Below are positions 1,230 through 39,710 of a stretch of DNA of 64,000 nt, one piece after another. A program made the position numbers and the translations under genes. The notes beneath the pieces were generated by a model. The model searched no databases and was not told where the DNA came from. It was given only the letters and a program-made list of their open reading frames with translations. This DNA comes from an uncultured bacterium (GTDB lineage Bacteria; Patescibacteriota; Minisyncoccia; Phycocordibacterales; Phycocordibacteraceae). The DNA lies in NCBI GenBank assembly GCA_947085985.1, contig CAMTYL010000004.1, forward strand, positions 61,547 to 125,546. The letters are read 5' to 3'. Position 1 is the first letter of the stretch. Each line of letters begins with the position of its first letter.

Positions 1230-1910
1230 CTACTTCCCAAGCTTCTTATCACTCACAATTTGCCCGTCATCAATTTTGATAATGCGCTCGGCATGGCTCG
1301 CAAACTCTTCCTCGTGCGTAACCATAATGATGGTCTGCCCTGCCTGGTAGAACTCGGTGAAAATAGCAAGAATGGCCTGCGACGATTCGTTATCCAGGTT
1401 TGCGGTTGGCTCGTCTGCGAAAAGAATGCCCGGCTCATGCGCTACCGCACGCGCAATAGACACGCGCTGCTGCTCTCCTCCTGAAAGCTGACTTGGCAGC
1501 CCCGCCACACGGTGTGCAAGGTGCACCTTTGCGAGTGCCTTCTCTGCTTTCTCATACGCTGCCTTTTTATCAAGTCCCTGCATCAACAGAGGCATGGCCA
1601 CATTCTCAAGCGCCGTGAGCTCGGGAAGGAGTGCGTAGTCTTGGAACACAAATCCAAATCGGTTGAGACGAAACGCGGATTTCTCATCGGCACTCATGGT
1701 GCGTGCGTTCACCCCTTCAATGACTATCTCTCCACTGGTGGGCTCGTCCAAAAGCGAAAGTTGATACAACAGCGTACTCTTCCCTGCTCCCGAGCGGCCC
1801 ATGATAGACACAAACTCTCCCGAATCAATCGTGAGATCAATCCCTCGCAGTACGGGCGTAGTGACCGTTCCATTTATAAAAGTGCGCGTGAGGTTGGTGG
1901 TGGTGATCAT
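1230..1910 (-). CDS. ABC transporter ATP-binding protein (MacB/LolD/FtsE-like)
   Basis: Walker A GRSGAGKST, signature LSGGEQQRVSIARA, Walker B ILFADEPT; starts 3 nt after the permease stop. Confidence 0.9.
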   Translation of the reverse strand: MITTTNLTRTFINGTVTTPVLRGIDLTIDSGEFVSIMGRSGAGKSTLLYQLSLLDEPTSGEIVIEGVNARTMSADEKSAFRLNRFGFVFQDYALLPELTALENVAMPLLMQGLDKKAAYEKAEKALAKVHLAHRVAGLPSQLSGGEQQRVSIARAVAHEPGILFADEPTANLDNESSQAILAIFTEFYQAGQTIIMVTHEEEFASHAERIIKIDDGQIVSDKKLGK

Positions 1911-1913
1911 AGG

Positions 1914-3179
1914 CTAATTGCGTCCGAGGATAGAACTAAGGGTATTCTTTCGCACAATGATGCGCGCAGGAATGTAGCCCGCGAGCAGTGTGACGGATAT
2001 CAGAATTCCGATACGGGTGAACGTCTCCCCGAGAGGGGCCACCAAGATGCCGTCAGAGAACGGGAAATCAATCGGGTTTGCTGCAATCGCCGGAGACAGG
2101 AGTCCGTAGAGAAGCACCAAACCAATTGCAGAACCTGCCACTGCATAGAAGATGGACTGAAATACGTAGGAGAATTCAATAGCTTGCCCACTAATACCGA
2201 TACCCTTCAGGATACCGATAAACTTGCGACGTGTGATGGCATTGATGAAAATCACAATGAATATGGTGATGGCAGCCACCGCAAGACCAAGCGAGCTGAA
2301 CACTGTGCCAAGCAGTGCAAAGGTCGCAATCATATCTTTCAGAAACTTTGGCTGCGCGTCTTCAAAGGTCTGCACTTTTGCCACATTCCCCACTCCATAG
2401 AGAAGCAGGTGGTCGCGCACCACTGCTGGGTCAATACCGTCCTTCACCTTTATCGCAATCTCGTCCACGTTCCCGTCGCTTCGCCCAATAAGGCCGCGCA
2501 TTTGTGAGTCCGACATGAACGCTGAGAGCGATATTTCGTCCACCTTCGTCTTCACAATTCCTTTCACGGTGACTTCTTTAGTAACATCGCCAACACGCAT
2601 GCGAATCTTGGTACCGACACCAACATCTTCAAGGGTGGTAAACGCTGGGGACTCAATGGGCAGGTACTGCTTTAGCAGATAGTGGCCGAGCACCACCTGG
2701 TCGTAGTCGCCCGCTTCAATAAACGAGCCCTCTACCAGGTTGTCACGGATGCTGGTGACCGCGTGCTCGCTACTTGCATCAATACCAACCAACTGTGCAC
2801 CGGCAGTGTTCGGCTTCTCGTCGTCGCGACGAGTCTTGTAGTTGGCTTCAAGGCGCGCGGATTCACGATAGCGCGGCGTGAACGACTCCACCTCTGGCAT
2901 TGCGTCAATAATTGAGAGCACGTTCCCTGTCGTTTCAATGTACTCCTTGTCCGAGAGCGAAGAGACGATAACGTCCGACGTGTACTTCTCGCGGGTGGCG
3001 TCCACTGCGCCTTGGATAAGACCTACCAAAATACCCGATACCACCACGAGGTTTAAGAATGTAAGCACCATCACAAAGATGATGAGCGAGGTGGTCCACG
3101 GATTTGAGCGCCGTAGCTGACGGAGTGCTAAGAAGAGCCCGACCTTCGCATTTAGTGCTGTGTGCGAATGACGAGCCAT
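1914..3179 (-). CDS. ABC transporter permease, FtsX/MacB-type with a large extracytoplasmic domain
   Basis: N-terminal TM helix, ~250-aa periplasmic domain, C-terminal TM bundle; start taken at ATG 3179 (ORF runs to GTG 3212). Confidence 0.8.
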   Translation of the reverse strand: MARHSHTALNAKVGLFLALRQLRRSNPWTTSLIIFVMVLTFLNLVVVSGILVGLIQGAVDATREKYTSDVIVSSLSDKEYIETTGNVLSIIDAMPEVESFTPRYRESARLEANYKTRRDDEKPNTAGAQLVGIDASSEHAVTSIRDNLVEGSFIEAGDYDQVVLGHYLLKQYLPIESPAFTTLEDVGVGTKIRMRVGDVTKEVTVKGIVKTKVDEISLSAFMSDSQMRGLIGRSDGNVDEIAIKVKDGIDPAVVRDHLLLYGVGNVAKVQTFEDAQPKFLKDMIATFALLGTVFSSLGLAVAAITIFIVIFINAITRRKFIGILKGIGISGQAIEFSYVFQSIFYAVAGSAIGLVLLYGLLSPAIAANPIDFPFSDGILVAPLGETFTRIGILISVTLLAGYIPARIIVRKNTLSSILGRN

Positions 3180-3189
3180 GACGTAGAAA

Positions 3190-4656
3190 CTATGGAAGCA
3201 CCACCACCTCACCGACAGACAAGCCCTCTAGAACCTCTACCATACCAAGAGAGGAAACAGGTCCGGTGACTACTGCGCGACGCTCGTCGGCCTTCCCAAC
3301 ACGAACGGTCACATAGGAGGTGGCATTCTTCTTTGCAACTGCGCCCTGCGGGACACTGACCACACCCTCTCGCTCGTCAGTGGTTATAACAATGTTTGCA
3401 GTCATGCCAGACTTCACGCGCTCGTCCTCTTCATTAAAGTGAAGAATGACGCGGTAGGTAGACACGCCGTCTCTGACCGTCTCTGCGGGGTCAATAGCAA
3501 CCACGTGTGCGGCGAACACCACACTCTCTCCATATGCTTCAAGCGTAACGGTTGCAGGATCACCTACTTCCAAATACGAGATCTGAATTTCTGGCACAAA
3601 ACTTTCGATTTCCAGTTTTCCAGCACTCATAATTGTGACCGCTGGGGTTCCCTGACTAACGGTGTCTCCGACTTCTATATCAAGCCGAGTAACTGTTCCA
3701 TTAAATGGAGCGCGCAGTACATACTTCTTCAACTCTGCGTCAAGCCGTGCAACTTCTGCACGAGCAACCGCAAGCATAGCGTCTGCAATAGTGGTGCCCT
3801 CCGTGCGCTGTTCAAGTTTTGCCTGTGCTTCTTCAATGGCGCGAGTGCGCTCGCGCACTGCCTGCTGGTACGCGTTGTAGTTTGCAGGATAGGTGGTGCT
3901 CTTAATGTTTGGCACGCTCACGAGCCAAATAGTACCGTGATACGTTGAAAGGTTCCCTGGAAATCGTACATAAAGCCCCTGTGTTCCGAGTGGTGTTGGA
4001 TCAGTCTCAGAAATAGATGACGCACCAACCTTCTCTAGACCAAATGTGTAAAGCCGATACTGATTCGTGTTTGCGTACTGCTCAACTCGAAATTTGTACG
4101 ATCCTTCCACAGAGCCCGCGTACAGACCAGTAATAATAGGAGGTGTGGCCGTGTAGGTAGCAGACTGTGGTATAGCCTCTAGATTTTCAGAAAGAAGTGT
4201 GCGGTAGGCGCTCGCAACCTTTGTATCTTGTTGGTTGCGTATCTCATCTAAATTCACTTGCTGATTTGCGCGCTCTACACGTCGTTGCGATTCCTCTGCA
4301 CGCGCAGCGGCCAGCTGTGCAGCAACGTTATCTGATGCAATTGCCGCCAACGGACTTCCTTCTTTTACTGAATCACCGACGCGTGCGTACACACGGGTGA
4401 TTCTGCCCACCTGCTCAAACGACATATCAACACTCTCCGCAGGTTCTACCTTTCCTGAAACCGATACCTTTTGAACAAAAGTGCCTGCATCTACTACGTA
4501 GAGCTCCTCTCCATTCTTTCCATGAGAGATAACGGCATAGACAGAAACAGCAACCACCACAACCAGGATGACAATCGCAACTCGCATATGCTTCCGGAAA
4601 AACGTACGCCCGCGCACTGCAAAACTACGCAATGCGGAAATACTTTTTTGTATCAT
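3190..4656 (-). CDS. efflux periplasmic adaptor subunit (HlyD/MacA family)
   Basis: TM anchor, long coiled coil (AAQLAAARAEESQRRVERANQQV..., AQAKLEQRT...), C-terminal beta-domain; first gene of the adaptor-permease-ATPase operon. Confidence 0.8.
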   Translation of the reverse strand: MIQKSISALRSFAVRGRTFFRKHMRVAIVILVVVVAVSVYAVISHGKNGEELYVVDAGTFVQKVSVSGKVEPAESVDMSFEQVGRITRVYARVGDSVKEGSPLAAIASDNVAAQLAAARAEESQRRVERANQQVNLDEIRNQQDTKVASAYRTLLSENLEAIPQSATYTATPPIITGLYAGSVEGSYKFRVEQYANTNQYRLYTFGLEKVGASSISETDPTPLGTQGLYVRFPGNLSTYHGTIWLVSVPNIKSTTYPANYNAYQQAVRERTRAIEEAQAKLEQRTEGTTIADAMLAVARAEVARLDAELKKYVLRAPFNGTVTRLDIEVGDTVSQGTPAVTIMSAGKLEIESFVPEIQISYLEVGDPATVTLEAYGESVVFAAHVVAIDPAETVRDGVSTYRVILHFNEEDERVKSGMTANIVITTDEREGVVSVPQGAVAKKNATSYVTVRVGKADERRAVVTGPVSSLGMVEVLEGLSVGEVVVLP

Positions 4657-4729
4657 GTGTTCTCATAATAGCATTCTATCTATCTAGACATTGGATGAGT
4701 ACTTAAGGGTGCGCTGCACATGTGCTGTA

Positions 4730-5404
4730 TTAGATACTGTTTTGCGCGATGGATTGCTCAAACAGTTCAGGCAACGGTGGGTGGTGTGCGTCCAGCGCTT
4801 CAACAAACTCATGCTTTGGCAGCAGGAATCGCGGGTTGTGTGCTCGCTCGTCCCCTATGGTTGAGTGCGTGCGGCTCTTATAGTCGTGCGCTGGATACAC
4901 TACCGTACTGTCTGGAAGTGCACCAAACACTTCGTGGAGCGATGTGTAGAGTGCCTCACTGTCCCCGAGCTGAAAGTCGGTGCGCCCGGTGCCACCAATA
5001 AGGAGCGCGTCGCCCGCGAACACCGCCCCACCCACAAGCAGTGAAATGCTTTCGTTTGTGTGTCCTGGTGTTGCAAGAATATGTAGTTCGGAGCTGCCGA
5101 GAGTTATCCGCTCGCCACCCTGTACGGGCATATCGTTTAGTTTAGACGGAGCAAGTGCGTGACGCACCAACAGTGCGCCAGTCTTCTCCTTTAGCACTGG
5201 TGCAGATGAAATATGATCAGCATGGGTGTGCGTTTCTATAATGTAGCGCAGGACTGCCTTTTGCTTTTGGAGCGCGTCTAGATAGTCCTCAAGAGGAATC
5301 TCCTGCGAAGGATCAATAAGCGCCGCCTCGTTGGACACCTCGTCCACCACTAGGTACGAGAGGCATCCTCTGGGCGAATGAAATGGGTAGTAGTTCATGG
5401 TCAT
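4730..5404 (-). CDS. MBL-fold metallo-hydrolase; persulfide dioxygenase (ETHE1/CstB-like) candidate
   Basis: HTHADH metal-binding motif, glyoxalase-II-like layout; directly abuts the rhodanese gene. Confidence 0.7.
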   Translation of the reverse strand: MTMNYYPFHSPRGCLSYLVVDEVSNEAALIDPSQEIPLEDYLDALQKQKAVLRYIIETHTHADHISSAPVLKEKTGALLVRHALAPSKLNDMPVQGGERITLGSSELHILATPGHTNESISLLVGGAVFAGDALLIGGTGRTDFQLGDSEALYTSLHEVFGALPDSTVVYPAHDYKSRTHSTIGDERAHNPRFLLPKHEFVEALDAHHPPLPELFEQSIAQNSI

Positions 5405-5734
5405 CTATTTCTTTGTTGGTAGCTTTGCCTGTTGCCACGCAATAATGCCGCCCGACACGTTCTTGGCGTGCGTCATACCAAGCCCGTGGAGGGCGCTTGT
5501 AGCCATTGCGCTCCTGCCACCCGAGCGACACATCACGTGAATAGAGCGGTAATCTTTGAGCTTGTGCGCGTGTGCTTCAAGTTGGTGGAGTGGAAGGTGT
5601 AGTGCGCCTGGCACAGCTACTTCAGACACCTCGTCATGGGTACGCACATCCACAAGAGCGTGCCCATCACTCCCAAGTGTTGCGTGCGCTTCTTCCACCG
5701 TCACGTTCTTAGGTCCAAATGACATTCCAAACAT
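5405..5734 (-). CDS. rhodanese-domain sulfurtransferase
   Basis: single rhodanese domain, active-site loop CRSGGRS. Confidence 0.85.
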   Translation of the reverse strand: MFGMSFGPKNVTVEEAHATLGSDGHALVDVRTHDEVSEVAVPGALHLPLHQLEAHAHKLKDYRSIHVMCRSGGRSAMATSALHGLGMTHAKNVSGGIIAWQQAKLPTKK

Positions 5735-5746
5735 AGATAGAGGAGA

Positions 5747-6022
5747 TTATGCGAGCGTAAACGCGGTGCTAATAATCTGGTCCAGACTCTTCTCCAGGTG
5801 CGCTTTACTCTTCCCTTCACGTACGCACTCCTGCGCATACTCACGAGCAAACGCCTCTCCGAAACGCTTTAGTCCATTAGTGGCTGCTTTCAACTGATAC
5901 AGCGTCTGGGTACAGTCCTCAGTATTCTCTGCCTCTATAGAGCGACGGAGTGCACCAATCTGTCCTTCAATGCGGTTCAACCGCTTTACGAGTTCACGCG
6001 ATGCTGTGGTGGATTTCTTCAT
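5747..6022 (-). CDS. CsoR/RcnR-family repressor (CstR-like persulfide/metal sensor)
   Basis: ~90 aa, LVKRLNRIEGQIGALRRSIE helix, conserved Cys in EDC and QEC; alternative start ATG 6040. Confidence 0.8.
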   Translation of the reverse strand: MKKSTTASRELVKRLNRIEGQIGALRRSIEAENTEDCTQTLYQLKAATNGLKRFGEAFAREYAQECVREGKSKAHLEKSLDQIISTAFTLA

Positions 6023-6040
6023 ATGGACCCAGTGTACCAT

Positions 6041-6057
6041 ATACCCCCCTGGGGTAT
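6041..6057. promoter_or_regulatory. CsoR-type operator palindrome ATACCCC-CCT-GGGGTAT immediately upstream of the repressor start
   Basis: perfect 7-bp inverted arms around a G/C tract, as in known CsoR/CstR operators. Confidence 0.55.
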
Positions 6058-6137
6058 GCAAGGGACCCTAACCACGTTGACCGACCGGTACTTAGGCTGT
6101 AGAACAGCAAAGGAGAAACAACGGCCGGGAGGGTCAA

Positions 6138-6485
6138 ATGGGAAGAAAGAATCGCCCGAGAACAGAGCCACGTGTTGGCGAGCCACCGAAGCTTTCCAAA
6201 TACGCTGACAAAAGAATGAGGCGTACTGAACGGTGTCCGCACCAAACTGAACAACACCAGGCCAGGGGGACTCGAGCAACAGTTTTCGCAGTTCCTATCA
6301 ACAAAGGCATCGTGTTCGTTCGAACAGACGCAGGACTCGAGCTGTCTATCAATATGTCCGTAGTGCGCCGCGACTACAAAAGTGGCGCGCCGCCCATCGG
6401 TTGGATTGTGGACTACGACTACGAGGCGAATCCCAAATGGAAGCGTCCTCGCGTGACTCGCATTCACAGCGTCACCCCTGCCTGA
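6138..6485 (+). CDS. hypothetical basic protein
   Basis: 115 aa; SD GGGAGGG 5 nt upstream of the ATG; terminator downstream. Confidence 0.45.
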   Translation: MGRKNRPRTEPRVGEPPKLSKYADKRMRRTERCPHQTEQHQARGTRATVFAVPINKGIVFVRTDAGLELSINMSVVRRDYKSGAPPIGWIVDYDYEANPKWKRPRVTRIHSVTPA

Positions 6486-6492
6486 AGAAGTG

Positions 6493-6530
6493 GGCCCCGC
6501 GGAGCAATCCGCGGGGCCTTTCTTATTTCT
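6493..6530. terminator. bidirectional rho-independent terminator
   Basis: GGCCCCGCGG-agcaa-CCGCGGGGCC hairpin followed by a T-tract. Confidence 0.6.
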
Positions 6531-7155
6531 TACTACAAACGGAGTTCAAAATAGGAGTAAGTCGCTCCGCGATTCTCTCATACCCTGCCTCGTTCGGGTG
6601 CACCTGATCACTCATATACTTTGAATTCGCAATAAGACCCGAGAGGATGTTTGGCACAAATGTGACATCGTACTCTTTTGCCAACTCTTTAAACATGGGC
6701 GCGTACGGGTCGCTCGGGAAACCGCCGAGCACTCCCACCAGTACCACGTGCGTCTTCCCGCCAGCCTGAAGACGCTCAATAAGCGTTGCGAGGTTTTTCT
6801 TTGTCTCTGCTAGCGGCGTCTTTCTAAGCGCGTCGTTGCCCCCAAGAAGCAGTATGGCAATGTCTGCCTTCCCTTCAGCTTCTTTCACCCTAGCAAGTCC
6901 GTCCGTAGTGGTGTCTCCACTGCGCCCATAGTTCTGAATAGGTATTCCAATACTTGCAGAGAGTTTTGTGACGAAATCTCCACCACGTGGCGCGCCGTAC
7001 CCTTCCACAAGACTATCTCCAAACGCAATGATTACCGGCCTCGGTACAATCGTATCGCAAGATGCTAACGCACTTTGCCTATTCAAAAAGAAGACGGCCG
7101 CAACACCCACCACGACAAGTACCAGAACGCTGCTGACAACAAGTGTCCTATTCAT
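6523..7155 (-). CDS. SGNH/GDSL-family hydrolase (lipase/esterase) with signal peptide
   Basis: block I FGDSL, block III LLGGND, C-terminal DQVHP. Confidence 0.8.
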   Translation of the reverse strand: MNRTLVVSSVLVLVVVGVAAVFFLNRQSALASCDTIVPRPVIIAFGDSLVEGYGAPRGGDFVTKLSASIGIPIQNYGRSGDTTTDGLARVKEAEGKADIAILLLGGNDALRKTPLAETKKNLATLIERLQAGGKTHVVLVGVLGGFPSDPYAPMFKELAKEYDVTFVPNILSGLIANSKYMSDQVHPNEAGYERIAERLTPILNSVCSKK

Positions 7156-38157: not shown

Positions 38158-38189
38158 AAAAGCCGGGCCCCTACGGGCCCGGCTTTTTC
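38158..38189. terminator. bidirectional terminator
   Basis: AAAAGCCGGGCCC-ctac-GGGCCCGGCTTTT. Confidence 0.65.
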
Positions 38190-39052
38190 TATTTCCGTCT
38201 CCACAAACTGACACCATCACTCACGAACGTTATTGTGCCCTCCTCTATAGTAGAGACGACTGCTGCACCTTGGCGTTCAATTCTTTGCAGCACCTCGGGA
38301 GCTGGGTGCCCATGGGTATTTTCCTTTCCAGCAGACACGACCACCACGCTCGGTGCTACCTGTGACAGCCACTTCGCGCTCGTAGAATATTTTGACCCAT
38401 GGTGCCCTGCCTTAAGCACATCACTTTTAAGCGAACCATCACCGACCTTCACAAGAGTGTCCTCTACGTTTGAAGACAAGTCTCCCGTCAGAAGAAACGA
38501 CGTGTCTCCATACACAACCCGAAGTGCGATAGACGCGTCGTTAGTCGCTTTCAAGCGCGACACATCTTTGTTCGGGTAGAGGACCTCCATGTACGCTCCT
38601 CCTCCGAGAGAAATTTTCTGACCTGCGTGAGCTAGGTACGATTGCAGCCCCGACTCGTTCGCAACCGTTGCCACGAATCGGTCGTACCCGTCCGTATCAC
38701 TTGCAAGTCCAGGTGTCAGTAACGTGTCTACGTCATACAACAGAAACACATCGGACAATCCTCCGATGTGGTCCTTGTCAGGGTGCGTGGCGACAACCAT
38801 ATCAAGCTGTCTATCAAGGGGACCCATGATGCGCGGCAACTCGCGCACAACACTTCTGTCAGGTCCACCGTCAACAAGCACATTCACACCAGTTGGCCCT
38901 TCAATGAGAATCGCGTCGCCCTGTCCCACATCAAGAAACGAAACGGTGAGCACTCCTGATTGGCGCGCAGAAAGTTGCACCACAACGAGAGCATTCACTA
39001 TCACCAACCCCGCAAGAAATACCCCGAGCACCAGTGCTCTTCGTTGCTTCAT
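38189..39052 (-). CDS. ComEC-type MBL-fold domain protein (stand-alone C-terminal metallo-beta-lactamase domain of ComEC/Rec2)
   Basis: TM anchor; LDVGQGDAILIE, HPDKDH, GHHGS motifs. Confidence 0.75.
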   Translation of the reverse strand: MKQRRALVLGVFLAGLVIVNALVVVQLSARQSGVLTVSFLDVGQGDAILIEGPTGVNVLVDGGPDRSVVRELPRIMGPLDRQLDMVVATHPDKDHIGGLSDVFLLYDVDTLLTPGLASDTDGYDRFVATVANESGLQSYLAHAGQKISLGGGAYMEVLYPNKDVSRLKATNDASIALRVVYGDTSFLLTGDLSSNVEDTLVKVGDGSLKSDVLKAGHHGSKYSTSAKWLSQVAPSVVVVSAGKENTHGHPAPEVLQRIERQGAAVVSTIEEGTITFVSDGVSLWRRK

Positions 39053-39122
39053 GTCTATAAGTATAGGGTCGTGCAAGTTGTTTGTGCTGGGGTATACTCC
39101 AAACGTCTAAGAACCCTTACCT

Positions 39123-39710
39123 ATGTACACCGCAAAAACATTTTCACTTCCTGAACTTACCGGCCTCTCACCAAAGCAAATTGAGGTTCACCTCGCTCTC
39201 TACCAGGGCTACGCGAAGCACACCAATCTCATCATGGAGAAGATTGAAAAGCTTCGTGAAGAAGATGCAGCCGAGAACGCTTACGTCATCAACGAACTTC
39301 GTCGTCGTCTTGGATTTGAGTTTGATGGCATGCGCATGCACGAGTACTACTTTGAACAACTTGAAGGAGGCGCAGCCGACATCACCAGTGGCTCGTTTGC
39401 AACACTTGCCGAGAAACGCTACGGAAGTTGGGACGGATTTATTTCGCACCTTCATGAAGTCGCGGGCACTCGCGGCATTGGCTGGGTAGTCGTCTACTTT
39501 GACACTGTTGCAAACACGCTCCACACGGCGTTTGTAAACGACCACGAGCTAGGACAACTATCAGGACTTCCAGTTATGTTTGCGATTGATTTGTGGGAGC
39601 ACGCGTACATGGTGGACTACATTCCTGCAGAAAAGAAAACGTACGTTGAAGCATTTCTATCAAACGTAAATTGGAACGTGGTAGAGGCGCGCGCAGCAGT
39701 GGTAGTGTAG
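39123..39710 (+). CDS. sodA: Fe/Mn superoxide dismutase
   Basis: all four metal ligands alignable (IEVH, MHEYYF, DLWEHAYM). Confidence 0.75.
   Translation: MYTAKTFSLPELTGLSPKQIEVHLALYQGYAKHTNLIMEKIEKLREEDAAENAYVINELRRRLGFEFDGMRMHEYYFEQLEGGAADITSGSFATLAEKRYGSWDGFISHLHEVAGTRGIGWVVVYFDTVANTLHTAFVNDHELGQLSGLPVMFAIDLWEHAYMVDYIPAEKKTYVEAFLSNVNWNVVEARAAVVV

Follow-up and report, generated by a model that had tools for sequence, protein, structure and literature searches.

A CsoR-family repressor, a rhodanese and a type I persulfide dioxygenase form a probable persulfide-inducible, autoregulated operon in a Patescibacteriota genome

We analyzed a stretch of 64,000 nucleotides from an uncultured bacterium of the Patescibacteriota (assembly GCA_947085985.1, contig CAMTYL010000004.1, positions 61,547 to 125,546; hereafter, the window) and focused on a cassette of three genes that follow each other on its minus strand. 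In the order in which they would be transcribed, they encode a repressor of the CsoR/RcnR family (5747..6022, 91 aa; PF02583, E value = 4.5e-15), a single-domain rhodanese-type sulfurtransferase (5405..5734, 109 aa; PF00581, E value = 8e-13) and a type I (ETHE1-like) persulfide dioxygenase (PDO) (4730..5404, 224 aa; PF00753, E value = 8e-20). The corresponding open frames span 5747-6061, 5405-5734 and 4730-5404. The repressor stop (5747) is followed after 12 nt by the rhodanese start (5734), and the rhodanese stop (5405-5407) touches the dioxygenase ATG at 5404, leaving a gap of 0 nt, or of 6 nt if the ATG at 5398 is used; these spacings indicate that the genes are tightly coupled. Starting at 5398 gives a dioxygenase of 222 aa, the length of most homologues, and a public protein of this length (P0025) is 100% identical to that of the window. 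The original prediction, made from the letters and open reading frames, had described three tightly coupled genes with a rhodanese loop CRSGGRS, a dioxygenase motif HTHADH and two repressor cysteines, all of which we could read in the sequence and reconcile with the Pfam families. It had also interpreted the cassette as a cst-like sulfide/persulfide detoxification operon, and the sensor residues and the dioxygenase structure matches support this interpretation.

Next, we looked into the repressor. Its Pfam match covers residues 9-85 (56.2 bits; cutoff, 22.8), and its helix-1 motif, RLNRIEGQ, contains an E, a G and a Q that are invariant in homologues. The sensing positions of CsoR-family proteins are described by a W-X-Y-Z scheme (PMC8643695), and in the window repressor Cys37, Tyr62 and Cys66 occupy positions X, Y and Z, respectively. 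The protein had originally been called CstR-like, and when it was aligned against the Cu-sensing pattern x-C-H-C, it proved to carry x-C-Y-C. Neither cysteine changes in any of 24 close homologues or of the rhodanese-linked relatives. In the alignment, Tyr62 takes the place of the His that serves as a Cu(I) ligand in the CsoR proteins of Streptomyces and Geobacillus, a place held in SpCstR by the wedge residue Asn55. Cys37 is preceded by Asp, an arrangement shared with SpCstR; the aligned Cu-CsoRs have Tyr there. Across the rhodanese-linked clade, the third position is mostly Tyr and otherwise His (L013 and L014), Gln (L011), Ala or Ser (L015 to L018) or Arg (L091). This variability indicates that the position is not under selection as a metal ligand and fits a dithiol sensor with a non-ligand wedge residue; it also led us to reject Tyr at this position as a signature of the clade.

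Other members of the family carry additional marks, an N-terminal His in RcnR and InrS (H-C-H-H or H-C-H-C) and Pro2 in FrmR (P-C-H-x) (PMC8643695). The window repressor begins with M-K-K-S-T-T, without the N-terminal His or Pro2, and has no His at the third position, and on these grounds we rejected both an RcnR/InrS (Ni/Co) and an FrmR (formaldehyde) identity. The NCBIfam models for FrmR, RicR and RcnR also scored far below their cutoffs. CstR proteins are recognized by an x-C-x-C pattern with both cysteines conserved and no His at the Y position (PMC8643695), and the window repressor has this residue pattern together with a sulfide/persulfide gene neighborhood. By analogy, the repressor is probably a persulfide (dithiol) sensor and autoregulator. 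"CstR-like" is used here as a functional analogy drawn from the Cys pair and the gene context; orthology to the solved CstR is not supported. A more distant group of CsoR-family proteins (about 34% identical; L036, L044, L049, L058 and L059) has a C-G-C pattern and is encoded divergently next to a gene for a 250-aa PDO-like protein of the metallo-β-lactamase (MBL) fold that is about 32% identical to the window dioxygenase, with a ATACCCCAAAGGGTAT-type site between the two genes. This group looks like a separate cst-like lineage.

Among solved structures, the dioxygenase matched persulfide dioxygenases best (Myxococcus MxPDO 4YSB, E value = 5e-48; Paraburkholderia PRF, E value = 6e-36; human ETHE1 4CHL, E value = 2e-35; Arabidopsis ETHE1 2GCU, E value = 8e-34), while the best glyoxalase II structure reached an E value of 5e-19. 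This comparison, for which the original prediction had called, speaks to an alternative in which the MBL-fold protein would be a thioesterase of the glyoxalase II type and the cassette would serve to process methylglyoxal or thioesters. The top NCBIfam match is in fact the GloB model TIGR03413, and some sources label homologues "glyoxylase-like hydrolase," but the model was matched with 106 bits, far under its cutoff of 200.8, and solved PDOs scored about 30 orders of magnitude better. Moreover, GRTD, HDY and T-H-x-H-A-D-H-I-S are invariant in 121 clade members, and the conserved partner is a rhodanese, not glyoxalase I. We consider this alternative scarcely credible.

Type I PDOs are marked by T-H-h-H-A-D-H-h-T/S, by His/His/Asp Fe ligands and by R-x-D and H-x-Y (PMC6060420). 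In the window enzyme, we found T58-H-T-H-A-D-H-I-S66, H115, GDALL, G-R141-T-D and H173-D-Y175, all of them invariant or nearly so in the 121 sequences, with H59, H115 and the Asp of GDALL as the likely Fe ligands. Type I enzymes also have a strictly conserved C-terminal Cys (C247 of hETHE1 and C224 of AcPDO), which is essential in both hETHE1 and AcPDO (PMC6060420), whereas all 120 listed members of the clade (P0025 to P0144) end in ...N-S-x, before that position. Every full-length member of the subclade from the Candidate Phyla Radiation (CPR) instead has a Cys in the motif R-G-C-L-S-Y (Cys14 in the window protein). MxPDO has Thr13 at this position, as does AcPDO by numbering offset; in AcPDO, this Thr lies in the second sphere and forms a hydrogen bond with the His of H-D-Y. 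By alignment, R190 and K212 of AcPDO, which contact glutathione, correspond to the Arg of N-P-R, which does not vary in the clade, and to the Lys of P-K-P, which is Lys in only 58 of the 121 members. Judged by its sequence, the dioxygenase is a member of a CPR subclade set off by the missing C-terminal Cys and by the R-G-C-L-S-Y Cys.

The rhodanese scored 49.1 bits against PF00581 (cutoff, 22.2) and has the loop C69-R-S-G-G-R-S, a predicted catalytic loop of the C-R-x-G-x-R form that reads C-[RHQ]-S-G-x-R-S in relatives. Its best single-domain match in the PDB was the rhodanese domain of an MBL-rhodanese fusion (3TP9, E value = 2.5e-14), a match in keeping with the way the two activities are coupled in the PRF and CstB fusions.

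Upstream of the repressor gene lies a putative CsoR-family operator (6041..6057; ATACCCCAGGGGGGTAT on the coding strand) made up of 7-nt arms and a 3-nt center. The palindrome had been noticed before, as ATACCCC-CCT-GGGGTAT lying directly against the repressor start. It is present at exactly 6041-6057, but its position has to be revised, as it is 18 nt upstream of the ATG at 6022 and inside the promoter. No further copies of the operator were found within the 64-kb window, in which 0.04 such sites are expected with up to 3 mismatches. The looser pattern ATACC-N3-9-GGTAT gave two additional sites (18759 and 36125), both intragenic and without G/C tracts. A 7+7 inverted repeat by itself is not rare in 64 kb, and the significance of this one lies in its family-specific sequence, its position and its conservation in related loci, where CATACCC..GGGTAT is unchanged in 15 loci while the flanks diverge, even among loci with repressors sharing only 43 to 57% identity.

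Operators of the CsoR family are typically pseudo-palindromes that overlap the promoter and contain four or more consecutive G or C (PMC10318464), and the putative window site has the G/C run, AT-rich inverted repeats and the promoter overlap. Both SmCstR and SpCstR bind the cst operator of S. mitis, ATACCCTTATGGGGTAT, and dissociate from it upon exposure to cysteine persulfide or tetrathionate (PMC8643695); this operator has the same 17-bp frame as ATACCCCAGGGGGGTAT, with 13/17 bases identical, in agreement with the earlier assignment of the site to the CsoR/CstR G/C-tract type. The case for autoregulation, also made earlier, is strengthened by the location of the predicted operator in the promoter spacer and by its conservation in every related locus examined. 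One database protein, P0019 (95 aa, on a 969-nt contig), contains V-H-T-P-G-G-Y within its N-terminal part, which is the operator palindrome in translation and suggests a rearrangement or an assembly artifact at the palindrome.

To delimit the promoter, we relied on an alignment of 15 non-redundant upstream regions taken from 17 related loci (Saccharibacteria, Paceibacterota, Minisyncoccota and metagenomes) whose repressors are 43 to 98% identical. Within otherwise divergent sequence, the alignment contains one conserved block, cTTGCAT-ACCCC-N2-3-GGGGTAT-rTG-n-TAnAnT, in which C-A-T-A-C-C-C, G-G-G-T-A-T and the A and T at positions 2 and 6 of the -10 hexamer are invariant in the 15 loci. TTGCAT or a near match occurs at the same register in most related loci, and rTGn precedes the -10 hexamer in nearly all of them. 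We infer that the block consists of a -35-like TTGCAT, an operator filling the 18- to 19-nt spacer and an extended -10 element. In the window, the presumptive -35-like hexamer TTGCAT occupies 6056..6061 on the minus strand, its last two bases being the first two of the operator, and the presumptive extended -10 element, TGG-TACACT, occupies 6031..6039 on the same strand (TG at 6039-6038, hexamer at 6036-6031).

This arrangement affects the start of the repressor, which had first been placed at TTG 6061. That codon is merely the first possible start in the open frame; the homologues and the promoter alignment agree on ATG 6022, and the TTG belongs to the -35 hexamer. Most database calls of the repressor are 97 aa long and start from the equivalent of ATG 6040, which holds the TG of the extended -10 element. 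The six additional N-terminal residues of these calls are not conserved as protein and match promoter DNA, so that, as far as sequence comparison can tell, the 97-aa calls are a systematic misannotation of the start codon across the clade. The miscalled proteins include P0001, P0002, P0005 to P0011 and others; the interval in question is 6023-6061 in the window.

In the subclade of the window (the window, L001 to L005, L008, L009 and L092), the ATG follows the -10 hexamer at a constant 8 nt even though the intervening bases differ. Because of this constant distance, the repressor mRNA is probably leaderless or has a leader of at most 2 nt, with the transcript start predicted at ATG 6022 or no more than 2 nt away. 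More distant loci have leaders of roughly 20 to 45 nt. The arrangement TGnTAnnnT-N7-9-ATG also occurs at three other gene starts of the window (4656, 41752 and 46124), against a background frequency of 0.0024 per start triplet; the first is TGC-TATTAT-N8-ATG before an HlyD-like gene (4656-4673). Shine-Dalgarno-like motifs precede 17/70 genes, which is no excess over the 19% seen at random positions. These patterns suggest widespread leaderless or non-Shine-Dalgarno initiation in this genome.

We then evaluated how far the module is conserved. The repressor gene is followed by the rhodanese gene in 17/17 loci with a repressor at least 43% identical to that of the window. The dioxygenase gene comes next in 10 of the 14 loci whose contig extends past the rhodanese (in L005, the first 27 aa only, before the contig ends); L011, L013 and L016, whose contigs end at the rhodanese, were left out of this count. 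The repressor and rhodanese occur without the dioxygenase in L012, L015, L017 and L018. Two further genomes, reached via the dioxygenase (a Minisyncoccota metagenome-assembled genome [MAG] and a 645-kb JGI scaffold), share all three genes as well as the operator and promoter. The flanking genes, in turn, differ among loci.

In two further CPR loci (L093, 1868-3867; L094, 1830-3169), where the dioxygenase is about 55% identical, the rhodanese-PDO pair is preceded by a 92-aa regulator of the ArsR family (PF01022). This family includes the persulfide sensors SqrR, BigR, HlyU and YgaV. The PDB matches of the two ArsR proteins mix metal sensors with HlyU, SqrR and BigR at similarly weak scores. The replacement of one small Cys-bearing repressor family by another in the same slot supports reactive sulfur as the signal. 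Behind the rhodanese-PDO pair, L093 also encodes a glutaredoxin and another rhodanese, which is membrane-anchored.

Taken as a whole, we think it likely that the cassette is a minimal cst-like, persulfide-inducible, autoregulated detoxification operon. The reduced repressor would bind the 17-bp palindrome at 6041-6057, as a tetramer with two per operator by analogy with CsoR and CstR, and would occlude RNA polymerase at its own promoter, given that the conserved palindrome fills the spacer between TTGCAT and TGG-TACACT. Organic or inorganic persulfides or polysulfides would attack Cys37, and the product would resolve with Cys66' of the neighboring protomer into di-, tri- or tetrasulfide cross-links. 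The DNA affinity of the cross-linked repressor would then fall and the operon would be transcribed, probably as a leaderless mRNA. This release step is modeled on CstR biochemistry, the invariant Cys pair and the lack of a constrained metal ligand at the third position. The dioxygenase would use O2 to oxidize the sulfane sulfur of a low-molecular-weight thiol persulfide to sulfite, and the rhodanese would form thiosulfate by transferring another sulfane sulfur to sulfite, or would shuttle sulfane sulfur between carriers, so that persulfide would be cleared and free sulfite avoided. The chemistry proposed for the two enzymes, whose families are established here, draws on ETHE1, rhodanese and the PRF and CstB fusion enzymes. 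As the window holds no sulfide:quinone reductase (SQR) gene, the persulfide would arise chemically or come from the host or environment.

The enzymes alone cannot tell the direction of flux, and a metabolic role has been put forward for the same pair. Adjacent PDO and rhodanese genes in CPR genomes were reported in 2024 by Valentin-Alvarado et al. (PMC10811913), who noted that no earlier work had connected PDO with CPR, proposed thiosulfate oxidation with energy gain for the pair in Doudna-, Kaiser-, Pace-, Moran- and Gracilibacteria, and cited a role in sulfur assimilation proposed for the Paraburkholderia PRF fusion. Applied to our locus, this would mean that the cassette converts thiosulfate or persulfide to sulfite for assimilation or energy-yielding oxidation, the repressor tuning the supply. 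In established ETHE1-type PDO enzymology, however, O2 is inserted directly, with no coupling to an electron-transport chain. Furthermore, neither the window nor any fetched locus has a sulfite reductase, APS or sulfate-transport gene with the cassette, and control by a thiol-switch repressor that sits in its own promoter is the hallmark of a system induced by stress. We therefore regard a metabolic role as rather unlikely. The terms "CsoR," "repressor" and "transcriptional regulator" did not turn up in a text search of PMC10811913, and the Saccharibacteria are not among the carriers named in its retrieved passages; literature on leaderless transcription or on H2S or rhodanese in Saccharibacteria yielded nothing relevant beyond that paper.

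The signal could also be broader than persulfide, with the repressor acting as a general sensor of thiol oxidation or electrophiles (peroxide, hypochlorite, disulfide stress or aldehydes) over a redox-stress operon. In vitro, the reactivity of characterized CstRs extends to H2O2, tetrathionate and glutathione disulfide (PMC8643695), the CsoR-family dithiol protein TTHA1953 loses DNA binding on simple oxidation (PMC10318464), and the superoxide dismutase (SOD) encoded in the window fits a redox-stress role. Yet the operator stands over genes for just two enzymes, a sulfurtransferase and a persulfide dioxygenase, which act on sulfane sulfur and not on peroxide or electrophiles; the link between repressor and sulfur genes is conserved across phyla; and the 64 kb contain no second copy of the operator. 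On balance, a general redox sensor is improbable.

Several observations weigh against the reading as a persulfide-inducible detoxification operon. First, the profile of the repressor clade gave E values of about 1e-13 against InrS and Cu-CsoRs and of 1.4e-8 against SpCstR (7MQ1), the only solved member of the reactive-sulfur-species-sensor clusters 3, 4 and 10 of the sequence similarity network (SSN), in which it falls in cluster 10. Only two clusters at 50% identity scored below 1e-30 (1.84 billion representatives), marking a small separate clade. The same operator type stands ahead of many distant C-H-C relatives and, being common to Cu sensors, identifies the protein family and says nothing on the effector. 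L013 and L014 have C-H-C repressors with the same operon, and in L012 a convergent gene for a His-rich P-type ATPase adjoins (region 3203-5263). Second, the dioxygenase ends in ...IAQNSI, two residues past the last aligned position of MxPDO and without the C-terminal Cys, and the glutathione-contacting Lys is Leu. The window has no gene for SQR, a sulfite exporter or thiol biosynthesis. CPR bacteria are usually seen as fermentative, while the dioxygenase needs O2; we counted the SOD of the same window as oxygen context in favor of an O2-dependent reading. Third, a generic sigma-70 scan of 4500-6600 made no promoter call at the operator site, the hexamers being too degenerate for the scan rule, and the promoter, transcription start and leaderless status are predictions.

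Some of these points would fit a repressor that senses Cu(I) or another metal, as CsoR and InrS do, and is linked to sulfur genes only secondarily. In the PDB, the repressor profile matched InrS and Cu-CsoR best, and 80 of the best 150 representative relatives are C-H-C (42 are C-Y-C); the C-H-C pattern of L013 and L014, the ATPase neighbor of L012 and the operator type point the same way. An internal control, on the other hand, favors inferring function from gene context: three C-H-C relatives that we fetched lie beside P1B-type ATPases and 0/3 beside a rhodanese, whereas rhodanese or dioxygenase neighbors belong to the x-C-x-C clade, save in L013 and L014; L012 is also exceptional. The window repressor, however, has Tyr for the ligand His and Asp for the second-shell Tyr, and the ligand position is unconstrained in its clade. 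Moreover, copA and copZ are absent from the window and from 16/17 related loci, and no P-type ATPase or CopZ was seen in the window neighborhood. A metal sensor is thus very unlikely.

Next, we compared the persulfide-responsive operon proposed here with characterized systems. The cst operons of Firmicutes are arranged cstR-cstA-cstB-sqr in S. aureus and cstR-rhdA-coaP-rhdB in E. faecalis and S. mitis. In common with these, the window cassette has a CsoR-family x-C-x-C dithiol repressor without a His ligand over sulfurtransferase and persulfide-clearing genes, and a 17-bp operator of the type ATACCC-N4-GGGGTAT. It differs from them in lacking SQR, the multidomain CstA, a CoA-persulfide reductase and TauE, in having one single-domain rhodanese and a stand-alone type I dioxygenase, and in having one operator inside an extended -10 promoter with a probable leaderless mRNA. 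Unlike SpCstR, to which it has only remote similarity, the window repressor has an alpha1-alpha2 loop longer by 2 residues and Tyr as the wedge, and it is not demonstrably a member of the CstR SSN clusters 3, 4 and 10.

With the type I PDOs of human (ETHE1), Arabidopsis and Myxococcus (MxPDO), the window enzyme shares the Fe ligands, the motifs, the NPR Arg and the partnership with a rhodanese; the type I enzymes carry the C-terminal Cys (C247 of hETHE1) that the CPR subclade lacks. The same two catalytic modules are coupled in the PDO-rhodanese fusions (S. aureus CstB, PRF 5VE3, Alicyclobacillus 3TP9 and Blh), whereas in the window they are separate, translationally coupled genes, and the dioxygenase is of type I where CstB is of type III. 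A Cys-Gly loop specific to CstB has been described (PMC12934615). In ArsR-type operons (BigR-blh, SqrR, HlyU and YgaV), a small Cys repressor likewise lies directly upstream of sulfurtransferase and dioxygenase genes, but the fold of these sensors differs from that of the window repressor. The clade of the 222-aa dioxygenase includes proteins of Paceibacterota and Minisyncoccota, the same radiation as that in which PMC10811913 places the adjacent pair. In contrast to the energy-yielding thiosulfate oxidation proposed there, the pair here sits behind a thiol-switch repressor with a conserved operator.

We regard the system as a variant of the cst type that was to be expected and that introduces no new principle. 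Going by the sequences compared, its repressor and its dioxygenase each belong to a clade or subclade of their own, and the predicted promoter-operator architecture is defined unusually well. CPR bacteria, Saccharibacteria among them, are usually called minimal fermentative episymbionts with few regulators, and here one has what appears to be a complete O2-requiring circuit for sensing and responding to reactive sulfur. The thiol-switch repressor in its own promoter argues for inducible detoxification over the published energy-metabolism reading. A promoter and a 17-bp operator delimited this precisely by comparative footprinting are rare for uncultivated lineages.

More tentatively, and with little confidence, we suggest that CPR carry a lineage-specific persulfide-clearing module in which CsoR- and ArsR-type thiol-switch repressors are interchangeable and act via a leaderless extended -10 promoter, and whose dioxygenase uses a non-glutathione, possibly host-derived, thiol persulfide or an enzyme-bound intermediate passed to the rhodanese. 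A non-glutathione persulfide or enzyme-bound intermediate is conceivable because of the R-G-C-L-S-Y Cys, the missing C-terminal Cys and the variable Lys. If this were true, the module would connect an episymbiont with the sulfur chemistry of its host in an inducible and O2-dependent way, and it would provide the first CPR promoter-operator pair defined well enough for testing.

The surroundings of the cassette agree with the CPR-like origin that had been proposed for the window. In a species-level genome collection searched by tblastn, the nearest loci were in Candidatus Saccharibacteria MAGs (repressor 73 to 98% identical), followed by one Paceibacterota-labeled and one unclassified MAG. Close relatives are also present in the Hainich groundwater wells. 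Elsewhere, the window consists of housekeeping genes, among them those for IF-3, EF-Tu, EF-G, ComEC, RecJ, PGK, TIM, the ATPase and the platform protein of a type IV pilus, NusA, ClpP and RNase Y. Among the 36 window open reading frames scanned against Pfam, we saw no further sulfur-metabolism genes. Horizontal transfer was rejected, as there is no GC anomaly around the cassette.

The genes on either side of the cassette do not appear to belong to it. The downstream HlyD/FtsX/ABC genes (1230-4656), which have their own promoter-like start TGC-TATTAT-N8-ATG, were rejected as part of the system because they do not adjoin the cassette in other species; there may be read-through into them from the cassette. 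On the other side, a divergent plus-strand gene (6138-6485) encodes a basic protein of 115 aa without a Pfam or NCBIfam match. It was likewise rejected, being kept elsewhere only in L002 and L005; it has its own promoter-like site, TTGACC-17-TAGAAC (6077-6105), and an AAGGAG-like ribosome-binding site. After it comes a strong, GC-rich terminator (6492-6519), the sole convincing one in 4500-6600. Rfam gave no RNA element above threshold in the intergenic region, its one sub-threshold chance match falling on this terminator.

In several related loci, a conserved membrane protein of about 225 aa, absent from the window and without a Pfam match, ends just upstream of the operator (L001, 3279-3959; L002, 3278-3958; L004, 3219-3938; L009, 1803-2474), and in L003 its place is taken by an MntP-family protein. 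In L015, a divergent gene of the ThiF family (E1-like; 1287-2462) adjoins the repressor. Finally, the Fe/Mn superoxide dismutase that had been predicted at 39123 is borne out by a match to PF02777 (39123-39710, 195 aa; only the C-terminal SOD domain scored in Pfam), and it lies back-to-back with a gene for a second MBL-fold protein (38189-39076), adjoining ComEC.

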